This document shows positions 2,468-12,174 of a stretch of DNA of 64,000 nt, in pieces. The position numbers were made by a program, and so were the translations under genes. How positions within the stretch are numbered: the stretch's first letter is position 1; every line of letters starts with the position of its first letter. The notes below the pieces were generated by a model, which had not been told where the DNA came from, searched no databases, and worked only from the letters and a program-made list of their open reading frames with translations. The DNA is from a virus (lineage: Duplodnaviria > Caudoviricetes): positions 1 through 64,000 of the IMG/VR virus record IMGVR_UViG_2974597873_000001. One strand, given 5' to 3'.

Positions 2468-2680
2468 GGGACCGTGAGGGGTGAGGGTGAGTGATGGGCT
2501 CACCCTCCCTCTACAGGCTACACAGAGACGCGTAGGGCCGATGTTTGTACCAACGATTGTTTACAAGATCAGATAACGGTCATGTAACAGTCTGAGGGTG
2601 TCCGCTTGACAGCACCCTCCCCCGTAGGGAAACGTCGGCCCCGCAACAGCAACCCCTAGACCCCCCGGAGAGTGGTCACC

Positions 2681-4801: not shown

Positions 4802-5218
4802 ATGCCCGGATATAACGAATGTGGTATCTACGATCCTCGCTGCGTAAAGGGGACGTGCAATCATCCCACCAACCCGCGTAACAGCGGTATGCAGTGTCGC
4901 ACCATGCCCGCTCAGCGTCCGTGCCGCACGGGAGGATGTACGCGTCCCGAGTGCTCCCGTGCGCGTCTCAGCGCGTCGGCATTTCAGGCAGGCATGGTGA
5001 CTGACACAACGAGTGGTACAAACATCGGCTCTGTGCCCCCTCAGGTGGACGTCATCAAGTCCCGGGAGGAAGAGCCTACCTACAGCCTTACGGGGCTCAC
5101 ACGCGCCAATCTGCGCACCCTGGAACGGGCACTACGTGCGCGGGAGAGGGACGCAAAGGTGGGAGACGACTACGCGGAACTGCGTACGCTCCGGGACATG
5201 GTGTGTGACCTACTCTAA
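4802..5218 (+). CDS. hypothetical Cys-rich protein
   Basis: 138 aa, AAGGAG RBS. Confidence 0.7.
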   Translation: MPGYNECGIYDPRCVKGTCNHPTNPRNSGMQCRTMPAQRPCRTGGCTRPECSRARLSASAFQAGMVTDTTSGTNIGSVPPQVDVIKSREEEPTYSLTGLTRANLRTLERALRARERDAKVGDDYAELRTLRDMVCDLL

Positions 5219-5229
5219 GCAAGATCATT

Positions 5230-5272
5230 AGTGCCCCTGATCATGGGAAAACTCCAGGTCAGGGGCACTTTT
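5230..5272 (+). terminator. intrinsic terminator
   Basis: AGTGCCCCTGATC...GGTCAGGGGCACT followed by a T-run. Confidence 0.7.
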
Positions 5273-5282
5273 GCGTACGGGC

Positions 5283-5311
5283 TTGACATACCCCCGGGAC
5301 CTGCGTAGTGT
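5283..5311 (+). promoter_or_regulatory. promoter P1 of tandem pair
   Basis: TTGACA-17-TAGTGT. Confidence 0.75.
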
Positions 5312-5394
5312 CCTCCCTGTCAGCACAACCGAGCAACGCCGAAGCGAGACAGCCCTAGGGCCTAAAACGACGCAACGGACGCTCACACGGAGAG

Positions 5395-5423
5395 TTGACA
5401 CCAGCAACACAAGCTAGTAAGTT
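5395..5423 (+). promoter_or_regulatory. promoter P2 of tandem pair
   Basis: TTGACA-17-TAAGTT. Confidence 0.75.
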
Positions 5424-5469
5424 CGACCTCAGCAAGACAGCAACACCGCACAACAGCAAGACCTAGTAT

Positions 5470-5494
5470 CGCTCCTTGATAACTCAACAGTGTG
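5470..5494 (+). promoter_or_regulatory. rrn-leader boxA-like antitermination element
   Basis: CGCTCCTTGATAACTCAACAGTGTG resembles the Streptomyces rrn leader sequence as I recall it (CGTTCCTTGAGAACTCAACAGCGTG). Confidence 0.6.
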
Positions 5495-5504
5495 ACAATG
5501 GCCT

Positions 5505-5971
5505 TTAGCAGGCAGTCATAAAGTCACTGAATTCCAGAAAGTCAGGAAATCATGACGACTGCTGAAATCGCTGGTCTCGTGTGGGAAATCGACACACTCG
5601 CCAACGGTGCCAAGCTGTACACCAACACCACGGACAACATCACGGGTGTTCTGTACTGGGAAAATTCAACCGTGAACTACCACGTAGTCATGGTGGATGA
5701 CGAAACTTCCCCGCGTGAGTTTTACGACAACGCTCCTTACGCATCATGGAGCAAGTCACATCACGCGGACGCTTTGCGTAGCCTCAGTGAGGTTATGGGG
5801 GACGTCGAAGAAGAGTTGAAGGAAGACGCGTTGGATAGCTACTACTCTTCCGGCGCGGACTACGACGACGGAGATTACGGGTATGACTCTTACGACCCGT
5901 ATGACGTGGAATACGACCGTTACTAAAGTCTGAATCCATCGGAATTCAGTGACTCTATGATTGCCTGCTAA
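5505..5971 (+). repeat. 31-bp long-range inverted repeat (5505-5535 / 5941-5971) enclosing one ORF
   Basis: TTAGCAGGCAGTCATAAAGTCACTGAATTCC vs GGAATTCAGTGACTCTATGATTGCCTGCTAA: 29 Watson-Crick pairs, 1 G-U, 1 mismatch. Confidence 0.9.
5552..5926 (+). CDS. acidic protein with D/Y-rich tail
   Basis: 124 aa, AGGA RBS, ends DYDDGDYGYDSYDPYDVEYDRY. Confidence 0.8.
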   Translation: MTTAEIAGLVWEIDTLANGAKLYTNTTDNITGVLYWENSTVNYHVVMVDDETSPREFYDNAPYASWSKSHHADALRSLSEVMGDVEEELKEDALDSYYSSGADYDDGDYGYDSYDPYDVEYDRY

Positions 5972-6125
5972 TTCTCAATTTTGGTCAGCATTCCTCACCG
6001 AATATGCCCCACTCATAATGATTGGTTGTGCAGTAAGTGAGTTCGAATGGTTGACCCTGAATAGTACTAGCTAGGTGAATTACAACCCTATCTAGTGCTA
6101 TCCACGGTCACCCAAACGAAAGGAA

Positions 6126-6644
6126 ATGACCATGTCGGAATTCCACACCCTTTACAAGGGTTCTTTCGGTCACGCAGAGTCGGAGCGTGTGAGTAAGTAC
6201 GTGATGATTTACAAGCGTGCCGGAAAGGTTATTCCGGATGATGTGGCGCAGGCAATCGCGGGTTACTGGCATTCGCCTGCCTCCCCGAACTCCACCCGCC
6301 TCAGCACCATGGGTGAAATCGGTGTCGAGACTGACATTGCAGATTTCTGCAATGACAGGGAGTACAGCAATCTCGTACTCAACACGTCGATTTACGAAAT
6401 CGACGCACTCGGCGCCTACATCGAAAGCAAGAAAGCGCAGTTCCGCCACGAAATCGACTCGCTTGATGTTCAGGTGGGCGATGTTCTGGAAGACTGCCCG
6501 GAAGACGGAAAGGTGACGGCTGCCCGTACCATTTCCGTCGACTATTCCGGTACGCCCGGAGAGGGCCGTAAGGTCCGCTTTGAGAGCGAAGAGGACGACA
6601 TCCTTGCCGCTCCCATGATGCTTACGGTTTACCGGGGTTTCTAA
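6126..6644 (+). CDS. hypothetical protein
   Basis: 172 aa, GAAAGGA RBS. Confidence 0.75.
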   Translation: MTMSEFHTLYKGSFGHAESERVSKYVMIYKRAGKVIPDDVAQAIAGYWHSPASPNSTRLSTMGEIGVETDIADFCNDREYSNLVLNTSIYEIDALGAYIESKKAQFRHEIDSLDVQVGDVLEDCPEDGKVTAARTISVDYSGTPGEGRKVRFESEEDDILAAPMMLTVYRGF

Positions 6645-6700
6645 CGGGATTCGGTCCGGCATTGGGGTTGACATTCCAGTGCCGGACAGTGTCCAATTAG
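6641..6700 (+). other. UU/UG hairpin copy 2 (TTGACA loop)
   Basis: CTAACGGGA-TT-16 bp stem-TG-TCCAATTAG. Confidence 0.7.
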
Positions 6701-6723
6701 GGACAACCAAACGAAAGGACATT

Positions 6724-6945
6724 ATGCGTAATTACTCCGCAATGTGGGATGACTTTTTCGGGGCTGCACTGTGGGTCGGATTTCTCTTCCTGCTTGCCCT
6801 GATCCTTCCCGTGCCCGGGTGGCCCACTCTGTGGTGGCTCACCTATCCTTTCGGGGCGGTGCTGGTCGGTATTGTCTGCCGTAAGCTCGGATGGTACCGT
6901 AACCTCACCATCAAGGGATGGCGCATTCAGCGCGTCAACAAGTAA
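6724..6945 (+). CDS. small membrane protein
   Basis: two hydrophobic segments; GAAAGGA RBS. Confidence 0.7.
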   Translation: MRNYSAMWDDFFGAALWVGFLFLLALILPVPGWPTLWWLTYPFGAVLVGIVCRKLGWYRNLTIKGWRIQRVNK

Positions 6946-6957
6946 CAAGGGGACACC

Positions 6958-7131
6958 ATGGCCAGGGAATTCACGCAAAAGGAAATGGCCCAAATGCTCC
7001 TGCAACTGATCGATGGTTCCGGCGGCATCCTTGTGGATGACGCGGAATACATCGGGCAGGGAATCCACAAGCTGTACTTTGATAGGGACACCCTGCTGAG
7101 GGAAAGCGGACGGATGGAAGAAGAGTTCTAG
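6958..7131 (+). CDS. hypothetical protein (57 aa; not in the ORF track)
   Basis: AAGGGG RBS, MAREFTQKEMAQMLLQ...MEEEF. Confidence 0.6.
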   Translation: MAREFTQKEMAQMLLQLIDGSGGILVDDAEYIGQGIHKLYFDRDTLLRESGRMEEEF

Positions 7132-7182
7132 AGGGATTGCATTGTCCCTACTCACGTAGTAGGGTCAGTGTTGTCCACCTAG
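7128..7182 (+). other. UU/UG hairpin copy 3
   Basis: CTAGAGGGA-TT-14 bp stem-TG-TCCACCTAG. Confidence 0.7.
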
Positions 7183-7216
7183 CACAATGCTAGATGGCTA
7201 CACAGGAGGTAATATC

Positions 7217-7351
7217 ATGTCGGTCAACCTGAACAACGTCGCCGGTATCGTCTGCGGTCGTCGTAAGGATGACTCCCGCTGCGTGCTGTGGGACAACGAC
7301 ACCTTCGAGTGGTTCACGGCGGAAGAGTTCGCCAACAAGTTCGGTAACTGA
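7217..7351 (+). CDS. hypothetical protein (44 aa; not in the ORF track)
   Basis: AGGAGGT RBS, MSVNLNNVAGIVCG... Confidence 0.6.
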   Translation: MSVNLNNVAGIVCGRRKDDSRCVLWDNDTFEWFTAEEFANKFGN

Positions 7352-7373
7352 ACAACAAGAGAGGACACACCCC

Positions 7374-7514
7374 ATGAAGATGCACAAGGGATGGAAGATC
7401 ACGTTCCCGGACAAGAACGAGGAGTATTTCCTCGCTTCCCAGCTTCCCCGCGCGACGCGTACGGCTGCTGTGTCGAACGGGAGCAAGGTGGAGAGGGTCT
7501 TTATCCTCAAGTAG
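7374..7514 (+). CDS. hypothetical protein (46 aa)
   Basis: GAGGA RBS, MKMHKGWKITFPD... Confidence 0.55.
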   Translation: MKMHKGWKITFPDKNEEYFLASQLPRATRTAAVSNGSKVERVFILK

Positions 7515-7569
7515 CCTGATTGCCTGTTAGAGGGGCGTACAGCGTCCCTCTAGCGGGTTGTCCGACTAG
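7511..7569 (+). other. UU/UG hairpin copy 4
   Basis: GTAGCCTGA-TT-17 bp stem-TG-TCCGACTAG. Confidence 0.7.
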
Positions 7570-7797
7570 TTGAAAGGACGTGGGACAGTGCTTATCGGTC
7601 TGATCGCACTTGCCATCGGATACGTGTCCGTCGGTGTGGCCATGTACTCCGGGGATTACAACTACAGGCGACAGCAGTACGGTACCGTACGAGCCACCGT
7701 GAACAGTGTGTGTCTCGTGCTCGCATGGCCGTTCATGCTCCTGTACGCCGCTTACGCGCTGTTCAGGTTCATGACGTCCAAGCGTGGACTGTTCTAG
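7570..7797 (+). CDS. small membrane protein
   Basis: two TM segments, xxLAWP motif; true start may be slightly downstream. Confidence 0.6.
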   Translation: MKGRGTVLIGLIALAIGYVSVGVAMYSGDYNYRRQQYGTVRATVNSVCLVLAWPFMLLYAAYALFRFMTSKRGLF

Positions 7798-7848
7798 ACG
7801 TATTGCATCCATCTAAGACGTGTGCTTAGATGGGTGTTGTTCGCCTAG
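7794..7848 (+). other. UU/UG hairpin copy 5
   Basis: CTAGACGTA-TT-13 bp stem-TG-TTCGCCTAG. Confidence 0.7.
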
Positions 7849-7947
7849 ACGAAAGGAAGTGCGAACGATGCTCATAGGAGCAATCATCATCGGTACGTGT
7901 ACTCTCCTGTACGCGTGTAAGCGTTTCATTGACATGGGAGAGAAGTA

Positions 7948-8307
7948 ATGGCCACGTACAACGGCTGGACGGAACTGCGGGAGTACCGCGTGTGGATGGG
8001 TGAGGAAACGTATTCTGTCGTCACCGTGGAACGTCACCGCAACGGCTGGTACCGCGTCTACGAGGATGGGGGAAGCGACTGGAGCCGTTCCACGCGATCC
8101 GGTACTATCGCGTTCGATGAAGCGTCCAACCGGGCCGAATGGCTACAGGGGGAAGCTGCGGACACGTGCCCCTGTCAGAAGTGGGCGGAAGTTGAGCAAG
8201 TGGACTGTTACAGTCCCGAACTCAATCCGTACAACAGTGCGCACGGTATCCGCCTACAGGTGGTGGACATGATCGAAAACAGGGAACTGGAATTCTACGA
8301 ACTGTAG
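7948..8307 (+). CDS. hypothetical protein
   Basis: 119 aa, GGGAG RBS. Confidence 0.7.
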   Translation: MATYNGWTELREYRVWMGEETYSVVTVERHRNGWYRVYEDGGSDWSRSTRSGTIAFDEASNRAEWLQGEAADTCPCQKWAEVEQVDCYSPELNPYNSAHGIRLQVVDMIENRELEFYEL

Positions 8308-8361
8308 ACAATTTCAGTCATCCTAGGGACTTGACTCCCTAGGGTGGCTGTGATTGACTAC
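8304..8361 (+). other. UU/UG hairpin copy 6 with overlapping TTGACT-17-TTGACT
   Basis: GTAGACAAT-TT-15 bp stem (loop CTTGAC)-TG-ATTGACTAC. Confidence 0.7.
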
Positions 8362-8394
8362 AACAAGTGGTCAACCAAACAAGAGGAACACAGC

Positions 8395-8676
8395 ATGGAA
8401 ATCGGTAACGTCAACGAGCCTGCCGGAGAGTTCTACACTGTGCTCGCGCTGTTCGGTGAACTCCGGGCAGAAAGTCACGTGCTCACATTCGCCCCTGGTG
8501 ACACGGTGGCACTTCTCCGGTACGGTCCGGAAAACGAGCATGACGGGCCCCGTATCGTCTACGGCATCGTGGCTAAGACGTCATACAACCCCACCACGGG
8601 CATTCGGTACAGCGTGATGGACCGGGACGACAGCATGTATCCGAACGTCGGTCCCGATTATCTCGCGAAGATCTAG
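8395..8676 (+). CDS. hypothetical protein
   Basis: ATG after GAGGA. Confidence 0.7.
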   Translation: MEIGNVNEPAGEFYTVLALFGELRAESHVLTFAPGDTVALLRYGPENEHDGPRIVYGIVAKTSYNPTTGIRYSVMDRDDSMYPNVGPDYLAKI

Positions 8677-8729
8677 CCGGTTTTTCTCGCTCCGGGGCTT
8701 GACACTCCGGGGCGGGGATGATTGACTAG
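8673..8729 (+). other. UU/UG hairpin copy 7 with overlapping TTGACA-17-TTGACT
   Basis: CTAGCCGGT-TT-14 bp stem (loop CTTGACA)-TG-ATTGACTAG. Confidence 0.7.
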
Positions 8730-8775
8730 GTCTTGTCAGTCAGACAACGCAACACCAACCCAGAAGGAACACATC

Positions 8776-9081
8776 ATGGACAAGCTGACCATTGCTCGCC
8801 GCGTCGCCACCAACCCGAACATGCGCGCGCTCACGGCCAAGCGTGACCGGATGTTCAACCGGATGCGCGCGGACTATGGTAAGGACTTCATGGGCCTGGA
8901 CTACGCCAACCTGCCCGTGGATGAGGCGGGACGCGATGAGGCGTACGTCACGGAGATGAACACCGCTAAGGAGGGTGTCAACCGCTGGACGCGCCCGGAG
9001 CGTACGGAGTACATGCGCCTTGAGCGTCAGATCAAGACCTACCGGGACATGCTCACCGCGCACTACGCCAACAACGTCTGA
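8776..9081 (+). CDS. hypothetical protein
   Basis: ATG after GAAGGA; strong codon bias. Confidence 0.75.
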   Translation: MDKLTIARRVATNPNMRALTAKRDRMFNRMRADYGKDFMGLDYANLPVDEAGRDEAYVTEMNTAKEGVNRWTRPERTEYMRLERQIKTYRDMLTAHYANNV

Positions 9082-9126
9082 CACCCCCTTCAAGCCCCGT
9101 ACAACCCACACAGAGAAGAGACACAC

Positions 9127-9336
9127 ATGTTCAACGTCACCACTCCGGCCATGAACTCCCCCTTCACCCTGGTTCGCCCGGATCACTACGTCGTGACCAT
9201 GGGAGAGGGTCAGAAGGAGCGAGTCACGTTCGGTCGCTTCCTGCCCCTCTCCAAGCGTGCGGCGGGTCAGTACGCCCGTCAGTACGGCGGACGCGTGATC
9301 AAGCGGACCACGGCTCAGCGCGGTAACCTCATCTAG
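9127..9336 (+). CDS. hypothetical protein
   Basis: 69 aa ORF. Confidence 0.65.
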   Translation: MFNVTTPAMNSPFTLVRPDHYVVTMGEGQKERVTFGRFLPLSKRAAGQYARQYGGRVIKRTTAQRGNLI

Positions 9337-9388
9337 TCTCTTGTGTGGGGAGTCTGCCTAGTGTAGGCTCCCCGTACTGGACACTAGA
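9332..9388 (+). other. UU/UG hairpin copy 8
   Basis: TCTAGTCTC-TT-15 bp stem-TG-GACACTAGA. Confidence 0.7.
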
Positions 9389-9403
9389 AAGGCAGGGAAG
9401 GGC

Positions 9404-9595
9404 ATGACGTATTACGTCGAAATCCGGGACACTGCGGGTAAACTCGTGATGTTCCACAACCTTTCGGAGCAAGCGCGTACCTCTATCGTGGAAGCGATGA
9501 AGAGCGGTACGGTGGCTGTGTTCCGGGACGCACATGAGGGTCTGCACATGGTGAACATGGCACACGTCGTGCGCACTGTGGTGGATGTTGCCTAG
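9404..9595 (+). CDS. hypothetical protein
   Basis: 63 aa ORF with RBS. Confidence 0.65.
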   Translation: MTYYVEIRDTAGKLVMFHNLSEQARTSIVEAMKSGTVAVFRDAHEGLHMVNMAHVVRTVVDVA

Positions 9596-9650
9596 TTCGC
9601 TTTTCTCCTCTCCTAGGGCTTGACTCTAGGGGAGGGGGATGGTTGACTAG
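9592..9650 (+). other. UU/UG hairpin copy 9 with overlapping TTGACT-17-TTGACT
   Basis: CTAGTTCGC-TT-16 bp stem (loop CTTGA)-TG-GTTGACTAG. Confidence 0.7.
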
Positions 9651-9679
9651 TCCTAGTCACCAGGAAGGAAGTACAGAAA

Positions 9680-10294
9680 ATGCACGCTCCCGCTTACAAG
9701 AACTTCTCGGAGTTTCCGCAGACGATCGCGGGTTTCACCGCATGGCAGCAGCAGTGCGCGGAATGGGCGGAGTACCGTCAGTGGGTCGCTAAGCGTCGGT
9801 TCCACGCCCGTCCGGAGGAGAAGGGTATCCCCGTCGCCCACACGGGTAAGACGCTCCGCCGTAAGAGCGTCAACGGGCACGGTGTCTCCGCCGGATCGCG
9901 TGTGCTCTCCCACTGGTACCGTGACGAAACGTGGGAGAGCAAGGGACAGACCCGACGCGCGGTGCGACGGATCGAAACCCGTATGTGGGTCGGTGAGTGG
10001 ACGGAGGAACTGACGCACGACACGGACGGTTCCGACGCACGGGAGTGGTTCGCCACCCAGTCCACCACGGAGCGGCTGGACCGGAATTACTGGTACGAGG
10101 GTGAGACCCTGGCCGACCGTTTCGAGCGTATCGATTACGAGGGTAACGCCGACATGTTCCCGCCCGTGTACACGGTGGGCGTGACGGAACTGGATGAATC
10201 CTACTGGGATCAGGAGGATGACTACGGTTACTCTTACGGGTGTGACCGGTACTGCGAAATCTGCTACCCGGACATGCGCGGGTGGACGTACTAG
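9680..10294 (+). CDS. hypothetical protein with basic N-half and acidic/Cys C-tail
   Basis: 204 aa, AAGGA RBS. Confidence 0.75.
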   Translation: MHAPAYKNFSEFPQTIAGFTAWQQQCAEWAEYRQWVAKRRFHARPEEKGIPVAHTGKTLRRKSVNGHGVSAGSRVLSHWYRDETWESKGQTRRAVRRIETRMWVGEWTEELTHDTDGSDAREWFATQSTTERLDRNYWYEGETLADRFERIDYEGNADMFPPVYTVGVTELDESYWDQEDDYGYSYGCDRYCEICYPDMRGWTY

Positions 10295-10298
10295 TCAG

Positions 10299-10355
10299 TC
10301 TGTGAGCTTGCATCGTTGCCCTACTGTGTGTAGGGTGGCGGTGCTGGACCACAGA
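10299..10355 (+). other. UU/UG hairpin copy 10
   Basis: TCTGTGAGC-TT-15 bp stem-TG-GACCACAGA. Confidence 0.7.
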
Positions 10356-10364
10356 AAGGCGGAA

Positions 10365-10466
10365 ATGCTCGACATTATCGCGGTTCTAGCACTTGCAGGA
10401 TCGCTAGGTTTCAGCTACATTCTCCTTACGGCAAAAGCCAAACAGCGCAAGACAGACGAAAGGTAA
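10365..10466 (+). CDS. small membrane peptide (33 aa)
   Basis: AGGCGGA RBS, MLDIIAVLALAGSLGFSYILL. Confidence 0.5.
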   Translation: MLDIIAVLALAGSLGFSYILLTAKAKQRKTDER

Positions 10467-10470
10467 TCCA

Positions 10471-11202
10471 ATGGCCACGCGTAACCGTGTCGCTCAGTCC
10501 AACAAGATCACGGAGAGTGCCGTTCTGACCGTGATGGCGGGTTTCCCGGGTGACATGCTCACCCCCGTGGAAATCGCGGGAGAAATCGACGGAGCAACGG
10601 ACAAGGAGGTTTTCGACCTTCTGAACACCATGGAGGATGCCGGTAAGGTCACGGGGGAGGGTCGGGGACTCACCTCTAAGTGGTCCATCGGGGGAGCCCC
10701 TGAGAACCCCGTACAGGCGCCTGCCAAGCCCAAGAGGACCCGCCGCACTAAGGCGGAGATGGAAGCGGCCCGTAAGGAAGCTGCGGAGCGCACCGCGTAC
10801 AACGCGCGGGTGGCTGAAACTCAGGACATGGACATGAGCCAGAGTGCGGAAAGCGCGCTGGACGTCATGGCCAAGGGTGAGGCTCCGTCCGACACCGTGA
10901 CAACGCTCCCCAGTGCCGCATCCCTTCTGGGAGAGGGTCAGTCCCTCACCATTCCCACCCCGCCGGTTGCGGAGCCGGTCAAGCCCCGTACGGTCCGGCT
11001 CGAAATCCATGAGCCGAAGAACGGGGAGTGCCCCGGTAACGACATCCCGGAGTGCCCGGAATGGTGCCCCGTGAACGTGTGGGAACTTGCCCACGACGCG
11101 AACACGGAGAGCGCGCGGAACTACTGGGGTAAGCGGGTCGCGCAGTATCAGGCGGACGCACAGCCGAACTACGATGAGAACGAGGATAAGCCCCCGTTCT
11201 AG
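10471..11202 (+). CDS. protein with N-terminal winged-helix (Z-alpha-like) domain and PKRTRRTKAE motif
   Basis: LTPVEIAGEIDG...EVFDLLNTMEDAGKV...SKWSI pattern typical of wHTH. Confidence 0.55.
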   Translation: MATRNRVAQSNKITESAVLTVMAGFPGDMLTPVEIAGEIDGATDKEVFDLLNTMEDAGKVTGEGRGLTSKWSIGGAPENPVQAPAKPKRTRRTKAEMEAARKEAAERTAYNARVAETQDMDMSQSAESALDVMAKGEAPSDTVTTLPSAASLLGEGQSLTIPTPPVAEPVKPRTVRLEIHEPKNGECPGNDIPECPEWCPVNVWELAHDANTESARNYWGKRVAQYQADAQPNYDENEDKPPF

Positions 11203-11264
11203 TCTCTGATGTGATTTAGTCTCTCCCCGGGGAAACTCGGGGAAAGGCTATGTCCTATCAGGGC
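11202..11264 (+). other. UU/UG hairpin copy 11 (GAAA tetraloop)
   Basis: CTGATGTGA-TT-15 bp stem-TG-TCCTATCAG. Confidence 0.7.
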
Positions 11265-11289
11265 AACACCAAAACAGAAAGCGGAGACA

Positions 11290-11688
11290 ATGAATCTCAC
11301 CATCGGCGGAAAGATTCACCACCCCCCGTTCAACCGTCACGACGTCTTTCTCTGCGGAGACATTCGCGGGTACAAGGGTCACACTGGCACCCCCAAGCCC
11401 TACCCGGTTTCTCGGGAGGTGAATTGCCTCAACTGCCTTGACATCCTCAAGAGTCTTACCACCCGCCAAATGGGCGACAGTGGTATCACGTTCCGCGTGT
11501 CCGTCGCGGTGACGCGTGAGGGAGTCACCAACAAGCTTCCGTCGTTCTACTTCTCTTCCCTCTCCACCCCGGACATTCTGACTGTGGAGGATGCGGTTAC
11601 CGCAGCACGTACCATGCTCCACGCGGAAGAGCTGGAAATGATGTACGACGTGGTTTACGACGTTCGGGCATTCAAGCTCAACAAGTAG
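11290..11688 (+). CDS. hypothetical protein with putative Zn-binding N-terminus
   Basis: H..C..CxxC motif; GGAG RBS. Confidence 0.7.
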   Translation: MNLTIGGKIHHPPFNRHDVFLCGDIRGYKGHTGTPKPYPVSREVNCLNCLDILKSLTTRQMGDSGITFRVSVAVTREGVTNKLPSFYFSSLSTPDILTVEDAVTAARTMLHAEELEMMYDVVYDVRAFKLNK

Positions 11689-11766
11689 GCCATAACTGAA
11701 TTGCCCCTAGCTTGTCCTCACGGATGGGTTAGGGGCTTTTCGGGTGCCAGCATCTAATAGAAAGGC

Positions 11767-11955
11767 ATGGCTATGTCCTACTCGAAATGCTCCCGTTGTG
11801 GTCACCTCATGACGTCGGGACAAAGAATCGTGGCGGATCCTTGTTGCGGTGCGGACGACTGTGACGCCCCCAATGCGGTAAGCCACTACAAGTGTCTGCC
11901 GTACGGCCTACAGGCAATCGAAGATGCGGACGACGAGCGTTTCTACGTCCCGTAA
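11767..11955 (+). CDS. small zinc-finger-like protein
   Basis: CSRC...HYKC. Confidence 0.6.
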   Translation: MAMSYSKCSRCGHLMTSGQRIVADPCCGADDCDAPNAVSHYKCLPYGLQAIEDADDERFYVP

Positions 11956-12128: not shown

Positions 12129-12174
12129 AAGAAAGCCCCTACTGATTCCTTTGGGAGTTGGTAGGGGCTTTCTT
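12129..12174. terminator. bidirectional intrinsic terminator ending the early region
   Basis: AAGAAAGCCCCTACTGATTCC...GGAGTTGGTAGGGGCTTTCTT between convergent genes. Confidence 0.8.

Follow-up and report, generated by a model that had tools for sequence, protein, structure and literature searches.

A control region of Streptomyces phage BRock that probably imitates the front of the host rRNA operon around an early protein gene

Why should a phage enclose a single small protein gene between the arms of a long inverted repeat, and place directly ahead of it an element that resembles the boxA of bacterial rRNA (rrn) operons? We asked this of a locus in the genome of the virulent Streptomyces phage BRock (112,523 bp), of which the window, i.e. 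the whole stretch of DNA that was analysed, comprises the left 64 kb. A preliminary description of the locus, made from the sequence alone, had listed a terminator, two promoters, a boxA-like element and the repeat, and had proposed that the phage copies the architecture of the host rrn operon. The analysis reported here indicates that the region is probably the control region of an early transcription unit which imitates the front of a host rRNA operon, and on the comparative evidence we lean towards the reading that a loading site for Nus factors of the rrn type is combined with a leader-trailer helix which folds around an mRNA and is probably cut by RNase III.

The product of the enclosed gene is 100% identical to a protein of phage BRock, in whose genome announcement (PMC7453282) a regulatory RNA is absent from the description. 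The same locus is present in the phages Alone3, LuckySocke, GiJojo and pSt2308, which have genomes of 113-116 kb, and in seven metagenome contigs, one of which ends before the 3' arm of the repeat; the other six are included in the alignment of 10 sequences. In this 10-unit alignment, the non-coding parts are much more conserved than the enclosed gene. No Rfam family reached its gathering score in the 64-kb window, two further phage loci with a boxA yielded none at E up to 0.1, and a search of IMG/VR with the exact pattern of the stalk arms returned no match. The features of the BRock locus are collected in Table 1.

Table 1. Features of the BRock locus, with positions in the 64-kb window and the evidence on which each is based.
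Feature	Positions	Strand	Evidence
Intrinsic terminator, end of the upstream operon	5230-5276	+	Sequence and fold: 11-bp GC-rich stem, long loop, U run
Promoter-like site P1	5283-5311	+	-35 TTGACA (5283-5288), 17-nt spacer, -10 TAGTGT (5306-5311); sequence, regex
Structured leader of the P1 transcript	5318-5400	+	RNAalifold consensus, compensatory changes in 6 inner pairs
Promoter-like site P2	5395-5423	+	-35 TTGACA (5395-5400), 17-nt spacer, -10 TAAGTT (5418-5423); sequence, regex
C/A-rich, G-poor, unstructured leader	5424-5472	+	Composition; unpaired in the consensus fold
rrn-type boxA/boxC-like element	5470-5494 (core 5473-5490)	+	Host match, uniqueness, conservation, unpaired
Stalk, 5' strand	5505-5535 (5508-5535 conserved across relatives)	+	Inverted repeat, RNAalifold; invariant mismatched A 5521
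Shine-Dalgarno AGGAA	5544-5548	+	Sequence
Gene for 124-aa acidic protein	5552-5926	+	Codon-position divergence, RBS, AlphaFold2 model
Stalk, 3' strand	5941-5971 (5941-5968 conserved across relatives)	+	Inverted repeat, RNAalifold; invariant mismatched C 5955
Conserved hairpin H2, spacer 3' of the stalk	5991-6048	+	RNAalifold, compensatory changes
Conserved long hairpin H3	6049-6113	+	RNAalifold; precedes the RBS of the next gene (6126-6644)

The region opens behind the terminator of the upstream operon, which is as it had been described: the two arms of its stem (5230-5240 and 5259-5269) lie downstream of the preceding gene and are followed by the U run, and an equivalent hairpin with a U run stands immediately upstream of P1 in the relatives. 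The two promoters had been called consensus promoters with C/A-rich leaders, a wording that holds for their -35 hexamers, their 17-nt spacing and the composition of the leader, but not for their -10 hexamers; because these are merely TAnnnT-like, P1 and P2 were both missed by a strict sigma-70 scan. The -35 hexamers of both sites are invariant in the 10 relatives, the -35 and the spacing of P1 are conserved together, and the -10 of P2 varies among the relatives within the TAnnnT-like pattern. A transcript from P1 would carry a structured leader, in the outer helix of which positions 5318-5324 pair with positions 5394-5400, the -35 region of P2 (RNAalifold), whereas the 49 nt that follow P2 (18 C, 18 A, 9 G and 4 T) form an unpaired stretch that is rut-like in composition.

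The boxA-like element lies about 50 nt downstream of the -10 hexamer of the predicted promoter P2 and 62 nt upstream of the ORF, on the same strand. Its core agrees at 17 of 18 bases (one mismatch) with the boxA/boxC core of the Streptomyces 16S leader, and is the sole match with up to three mismatches in the window, where 0.07 matches are expected; the element is also single-copy in the 112.5-kb genome, and the whole-genome scan found boxA at none of the 29 tRNA genes that the phage carries. Nine core positions are invariant across all relatives, the rest of the leader being rearranged around them in the 10-unit alignment, and in some relatives the 5' half of boxA has diverged. The resemblance to the host is not confined to one sequence version. 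When each phage unit was compared with four host rrn operons (blastn, 10 units), the best match always fell on the boxA of the leader or on that of the 16S-23S spacer: the unit of the window matches the leader copy at 17 of 18 bases, GiJojo matches it at 27 of 30 (one contig at 20 of 21, another at 17 of 17), and the Alone3 type matches the spacer copy at 23 of 25, a match in which 13 of 13 bases correspond to the 5' strand of the host's 23S stalk. The relatives thus carry either the 16S-leader or the 16S-23S-spacer version, with its flanking bases. The preliminary description had ascribed a boxA-like sequence to host rrn leaders and had counted the lack of a match to them among the outcomes that would refute its reading; the leaders do carry the sequence, and the match exists.

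In the RNAalifold consensus fold the element is unpaired. No conserved downstream pairing partner for it was found (z-scores of -1.4 to +1.3), and a host-like pairing of boxA with a downstream trailer was rejected, the duplex energies being at the level of shuffled sequences and the positions unconserved. The host match, the conservation and the unpaired state suggest that the element is probably an rrn-type loading site for Nus factors.

How closely does the phage follow its host? A degenerate pattern of the element recovered more than 100 genome loci, mostly in Streptomyces and other Actinomycetota, where it lies 180-220 nt upstream of the 16S start or at contig ends. Whole host rrn operons contain two copies, one in the 16S leader and one in the 16S-23S spacer: the 3' half of the leader copy pairs with spacer sequence downstream of 16S, and the spacer copy leads directly into a helix (about 30 bp, with 27 of 30 positions paired) that is closed by sequence 3' of 23S, so that each leader-trailer helix of the host has a boxA at its foot. 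The phage shows the same order, with promoters, a boxA-type element and a helix of about 30 bp that closes a loop around a product, and the claim that it copies host rrn architecture is in this respect borne out, the order of promoter(s), boxA and long-range stalk paralleling both pre-16S and pre-23S anatomy. The two arrangements differ in that the product looped out by the phage is a 375-nt protein-coding mRNA and not an rRNA, that the phage boxA stands 14-17 nt 5' of the helix whereas the host boxA is itself the 5' strand, that no significant similarity to the host stalks is seen in the phage arms, and that the phage has a single boxA without a second one downstream, whereas the host has its second in the spacer. 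A derivation of the phage stalk from a host stalk was considered and rejected, since blastn of the 10 units against the four host rrn operons recovered boxA alone. An 8-mer is common to the phage stalk and the 3' end region of 23S, at a frequency not above chance.

The inverted repeat is the longest and best in the window. Its 31-nt arms form 29 Watson-Crick pairs, one G-U pair (5515/5961) and one A-C mismatch (5521/5955), and enclose a loop of 405 nt that contains exactly the ORF and its RBS, in agreement with the coordinates and pair counts given before. The duplex has a predicted energy of -51.6 kcal/mol and is present in the MFE fold of every version of the transcript that was folded. RNAalifold found it unprompted in the 10-unit alignment, and each of the 10 related phages and metagenome contigs has it, its arms almost invariant while the enclosed proteins are only 37-56% identical among the relatives. 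Across the alignment 99.6% of the cells of the stalk are paired and five pairs have changed on both sides (9 cells); none of 500 shuffles reached the observed values, and sliding the partner strand by 1-3 columns reduced pairing to 27-40%. The central A-C mismatch is invariant (10/10), and hairpin H3 contains another invariant A-C mismatch amid similar local sequence. When these two sites are set aside, the four conserved helices contain 72 G-U cells versus 13 A-C cells, a bias that favours a folded + strand RNA over a repeat maintained at the DNA level; as judged from its pattern of substitution, the repeat behaves as a + strand RNA helix and not as a DNA scar.

The position of the arms is conserved as well. 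The gap from the 5' arm to the start codon, which follows the Shine-Dalgarno sequence, is 16-19 nt and that from the stop codon to the 3' arm is 14-16 nt in all 10 units (16 and 14 nt in BRock), so that an initiating or a terminating ribosome would have its footprint just clear of both arms. The Shine-Dalgarno sequence is replaced by GGGG or GGGAG at the same distance in the relatives, and the divergence at the three codon positions (0.27/0.23/0.42) marks the ORF as coding. Its product had been described as a single acidic protein, and acidic it is, with a pI of about 4, 28 Asp and Glu against 6 Lys and Arg residues, and 14 Tyr. The AlphaFold2 model (pLDDT 73) displays a six-stranded beta-sheet, a long helix and a disordered Asp/Tyr tail. 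No match was found in Pfam or PHROGs, and in a large protein database a single relative (56% identical) was detected apart from the protein itself. Structure comparisons (Foldseek, VIA-align) gave middling and mixed matches, with at most a Z of 6.9 or a Foldseek E of 0.07, among toxin-immunity proteins, secretion chaperones, an anti-CRISPR and the acidic p32 family. In being small, early and strongly acidic it resembles the DNA mimics of the Ocr/ArdA type, and that it serves as an inhibitor or a nucleic-acid mimic is a reasonable guess, no more.

From this arrangement we infer the following course of events. Host RNA polymerase would initiate at one or two promoters of the sigma-70 type, and once the single-stranded boxA/boxC appeared on the nascent RNA it would, by analogy with rrn operons, load NusB-NusE(S10), NusA and NusG onto the polymerase; NusA of M. 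tuberculosis reportedly binds the boxC region of rrn with specificity (PMC2724277). A polymerase loaded in this way would become resistant to Rho within the untranslated, C-rich leader of 120-230 nt. In a published model of the rrn complex (PMC10250234), boxA is anchored to NusB while the product loops out, and the anchored complex is proposed to promote formation of the leader-trailer helix; insertions downstream of boxA had the same effect there as mutations of boxA. The complex bound to the phage leader would likewise keep it beside the RNA exit channel, until the 3' strand emerged about 430 nt after the 5' strand and the resulting helix of 28-31 bp looped out the RBS, the ORF and the stop codon. 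With its boxA 14-17 nt ahead of the 5' arm, and with a helix that has to close over 405 translated nt, the phage locus fits that model well.

In general, RNase III acts on long double-stranded RNA, such as a helix of 28-31 bp. The phage genome was searched for RNase III and dsRBD domains and encodes neither, which makes the host RNase III the likely nuclease; it would most likely cut the helix in the way in which it cuts the leader-trailer helices of rRNA, and the invariant central A-C mismatch, found also in H3, may mark the site. Cutting would yield a monocistronic mRNA, the paired ends of which lie just outside the ribosome footprint, and this released mRNA would be stable and heavily translated and would provide an abundant acidic early protein.

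The preliminary description had assigned to boxA a different task, namely antitermination through the hairpin-rich early operon, and this part of its proposal we find doubtful. Between 6.6 and 11.8 kb nearly every intergenic gap contains a strong hairpin of 12-20 bp without a U run, often flanked by CTAG, and a canonical hairpin followed by a U run (12129-12174) closes the operon. Hairpins lacking U tracts caused no termination by mycobacterial RNA polymerase, whether or not NusA and NusG were present (PMC3993855), and a clear need for antitermination is therefore absent; in sequence the intercistronic hairpins look more like processing or stability elements than like terminators. Read-through of the operon is a less plausible role than protection from Rho in the long untranslated leader, which is rich in C. 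Furthermore, any RNase III cut in the stalk would sever the sole boxA from the RNA of the downstream operon, and an effect of boxA on the whole operon is thus poorly compatible with cleavage; host operons solve the loss of boxA after cleavage through the second boxA in the spacer. The hairpins without U tracts and the detachment of boxA by cleavage suggest that the module may serve mainly the enclosed gene.

The helix might also remain uncut and act as a clamp that joins the ends of the message, protecting it against exonucleases and 5'-end-dependent RNases while boxA blocks Rho in the leader; the stop codon would then be brought beside the start codon, and ribosomes could re-initiate. The stability of the helix (-51.6 kcal/mol) and the conserved gaps of 16-19 and 14-16 nt, which put the arms just beyond the ribosome footprint, speak for such a clamp, with which all the data can be reconciled, and the helix bears no scorable RNase III signature, there being no sequence rule for Streptomyces RNase III sites to score it by. 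Yet double-stranded RNA of 28-31 bp, long and perfect, is what RNase III generically cuts, the analogous helices of the host are processing stalks, and the same invariant A-C motif recurs in H3, a local hairpin that is incapable of clamping ends, so that we consider an uncut helix unlikely, if still to be reckoned with. Much less can be said for the view that the repeat acts as DNA, its arms being either the ends of an invertible on/off segment or the terminal repeats of a cassette. A repeat of 31 bp flanking about 400 bp is within the size range of known invertible switches, and compensatory change alone does not separate a DNA repeat from an RNA helix; the excess of G-U over A-C cells on the + strand, however, does speak for RNA, as do the covarying hairpins (RNAalifold) that neighbour the stalk in the same transcript. 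In each of the 11 genomes and contigs the ORF points the same way; a search of the phage for Resolvase and Phage_integrase domains gave no serine or tyrosine recombinase, and flanking direct repeats are absent. The single orientation and the missing recombinase weakly refute an inversion or insertion scar, the outcome that the preliminary description had named as fatal to its own proposal, and with all the evidence considered a role of the repeat as DNA retains hardly any probability.

Two further explanations concern the boxA-like element rather than the helix. Transcribed in bulk from strong tandem promoters, it could be a decoy that titrates NusB, NusE and NusA off the host rrn operons and so contributes to host shut-off, instead of acting on the polymerase that reads the phage operon. 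It is a close copy of the host sequence, including flanks whose host counterparts are part of the 16S or 23S stalk, and about 100 Streptomyces phages have the element directly 3' of end-proximal promoters; competition of a transcribed boxA for a host factor has been documented in lambda (Friedman et al. 1990, as cited in PMC2724277). A decoy would not need a fixed place directly ahead of a long-range helix, however, and for a signal on nascent RNA action in cis is the simpler expectation; we regard the decoy as improbable. The element could also be a functionless remnant of host rrn DNA acquired by recombination, since the flanks of leader or spacer type are identical with the host over 13-30 nt in different relatives, which suggests repeated exchange with host rrn operons. 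A remnant would hardly have kept its core positions invariant in 10 diverged relatives amid a rearranged leader, nor its position constant, and the element occurs at the equivalent position in many unrelated clusters of Streptomyces phages, which makes this origin without function very improbable.

The preferred reading, Nus loading followed by the folding and cutting of a helix around the message, has partial counterparts in other systems. In lambda, nutL and nutR likewise place a host-rrn-like boxA just 3' of the early promoters, where it is read as RNA and recruitment of Nus factors is expected (PMC2724277). Unlike the nut sites, the BRock boxA has no conserved boxB-type hairpin beside it, either between boxA and the stalk or immediately upstream (consensus fold), and its near-identity to the host rrn signal suggests a factor-independent action of the rrn type. 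A closer likeness in layout is seen in phage T7. Its early region is transcribed from the host promoters A1-A3, and the RNase III sites R0.3 and R0.5 flank gene 0.3, which encodes the acidic DNA mimic Ocr. BRock shares with T7 the tandem promoters of host type, a first gene for a small and very acidic protein, the setting off of this gene from the polycistronic RNA by double-stranded elements, and intercistronic hairpins along the early operon. T7, however, uses separate local hairpins where BRock has one long-range helix, T7 is without boxA, and the BRock protein has no similarity to Ocr detectable in Pfam, PHROGs or the fold searches. Outside rrn operons, boxA shields poorly translated RNA from Rho termination in the bacterial suhB leader and in CRISPR arrays; these cases differ from the phage locus in being cellular, gammaproteobacterial and uncoupled from a leader-trailer helix.

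Is the element peculiar to the relatives of BRock? A 46-nt segment of the host leader found matches in 121 phage records, among them 102 Streptomyces phages and four Gordonia phages, and the matching Streptomyces phages span size classes of 45-56 kb, 82 kb, 115 kb and 134 kb. In the phages of about 45-56 kb among the matches listed, the right genome end is nearly always no more than about 1 kb away from the element, which is on the strand that is read inwards. An end-proximal operon that begins with this rrn boxA is found in about 100 other Streptomyces phages. The first genes of phiScoe45 are preceded by two tandem promoters, similar by eye to the promoter region of the host rrn operon, by a small hairpin and by 29 nt that match the host leader (96.6%, 28/29). 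A long-range stalk comparable to that of BRock was found behind boxA in none of phiScoe45, FlowerPower, Bantam, Coruscant and Keanu. A 16-nt repeat that brackets the first gene of phiScoe45 was considered as a stalk and rejected, being a palindromic, operator-like motif instead, and ARAGORN detected no tRNA-like element 3' of the boxA of this phage.

Processive antitermination is a textbook theme for lambda; in the literature searched we found no report of it in actinobacterial phages, and full-text searches returned no paper that describes boxA in actinophages. The wider picture that emerges, tentatively, is of an rRNA production line turned into an mRNA production line, in which a boxA-loaded polymerase would lay a helix around a translated gene and RNase III would free a panhandle message, and, beyond BRock, of a general and so far undescribed mimicry of rrn leaders, in promoter style, hairpin and boxA, in the early operons of about 100 Streptomyces phages and some Gordonia phages; we hold this picture in its entirety to be possible rather than probable. 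If it is true, it would offer a first handle on the early transcription of many Streptomyces phages, in hosts in which Rho is prominent. The succession of boxA and helix around a protein gene would be a compact natural test of the leader-tethering model of rrn operons, as a 430-nt mRNA with a protein read-out is much easier to manipulate than a 1.5-kb rRNA, and if the panhandle does stabilise the message, the module would provide a part that could be used as it stands for high expression in Streptomyces.

The boxA of the host rrn operons was present in about 100 Streptomyces phages belonging to several clusters, and in the Gordonia phage Bantam (representative loci are listed in the table). 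Both the Streptomyces phages of about 45-56 kb and Bantam have it in a leader that carries no annotation, about 1 kb or less from the right-hand end of the genome. The copies of phiScoe45 and FlowerPower are found downstream of tandem promoters that are similar to the host rrn promoters. A 16-nt palindromic motif occurs twice in phiScoe45: one copy lies shortly after a promoter (L256 908-923) and the other where the first gene, which encodes an acetyltransferase, ends (L256 1321-1336). An operator present in two copies is more likely here than an RNA stalk.

Coordinates of boxA-bearing loci and of a leader motif common to two phage groups
Feature	Phage or contig	Position
boxA-bearing locus	phiScoe45	L256 480-680
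boxA-bearing locus	FlowerPower	L260 770-1085
boxA-bearing locus	Gordonia phage Bantam	L259 1110-1140
boxA-bearing locus	Keanu	L257 1509-1527
boxA-bearing locus	Coruscant	L258 2001-2020
Shared 20-nt leader motif	FlowerPower	L260 ~845-865
Shared 20-nt leader motif	contigs L127 and L133 (P1 leader)	columns 109-130 of the ten-unit alignment A1

Several further sequence features were recognized in BRock besides the long-range stalk (the 31-nt inverted repeat enclosing ORF 5552-5926). An A-C mismatch is invariant in 10 of 10 sequences, both in the stalk (5521/5955) and in H3, a local hairpin that precedes the following gene (window 6049-6113); its local sequence context is alike in the two structures and the adjoining pair shows covariation. 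The mismatch may be a shared mark for recognition or cleavage. Immediately 3' of the stalk's 3' arm, BRock carries about 11 nt of inserted U-rich sequence (window 5972-5985), which is absent from all relatives; combined with the stalk, this insertion could form a weak terminator or attenuator in BRock only. Nearly all intergenic gaps of the early operon (window 6639-11772) contain strong GC-rich hairpins of 12-20 bp without a U run, frequently bordered by CTAG; the loops of several contain TTGAC(A/T). These hairpins resemble intercistronic sites of processing or stability in the style of T7, rather than terminators. A 19-nt inverted repeat (95% complementary; window 2534-2552 / 5014-5032), with arms 2.46 kb apart, contains a TGTACC...TTGT motif.

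The transcript from P1, the upstream of the two predicted promoter-like sites, can be folded into a covarying multi-helix element (window 5318-5400), the outer stem of which includes the -35 hexamer of the second site, P2. Therefore, the conservation of TTGACA at P2 may reflect RNA pairing, in addition to or in place of promoter function. Upstream of boxA, leaders of the Alone3 type (Alone3, L001 3120-3170) have a small GCCC...GGGTG hairpin that is lacking in the window; Streptomyces 16S leaders have a similar hairpin in the corresponding position. Another leader motif of 20 nt, made up of CTAAAAC preceded by a small hairpin, is identical in the BRock-like group and in the unrelated 46-kb phage FlowerPower, a sequence identity which hints that a regulatory cassette might have been swapped between phage clusters.
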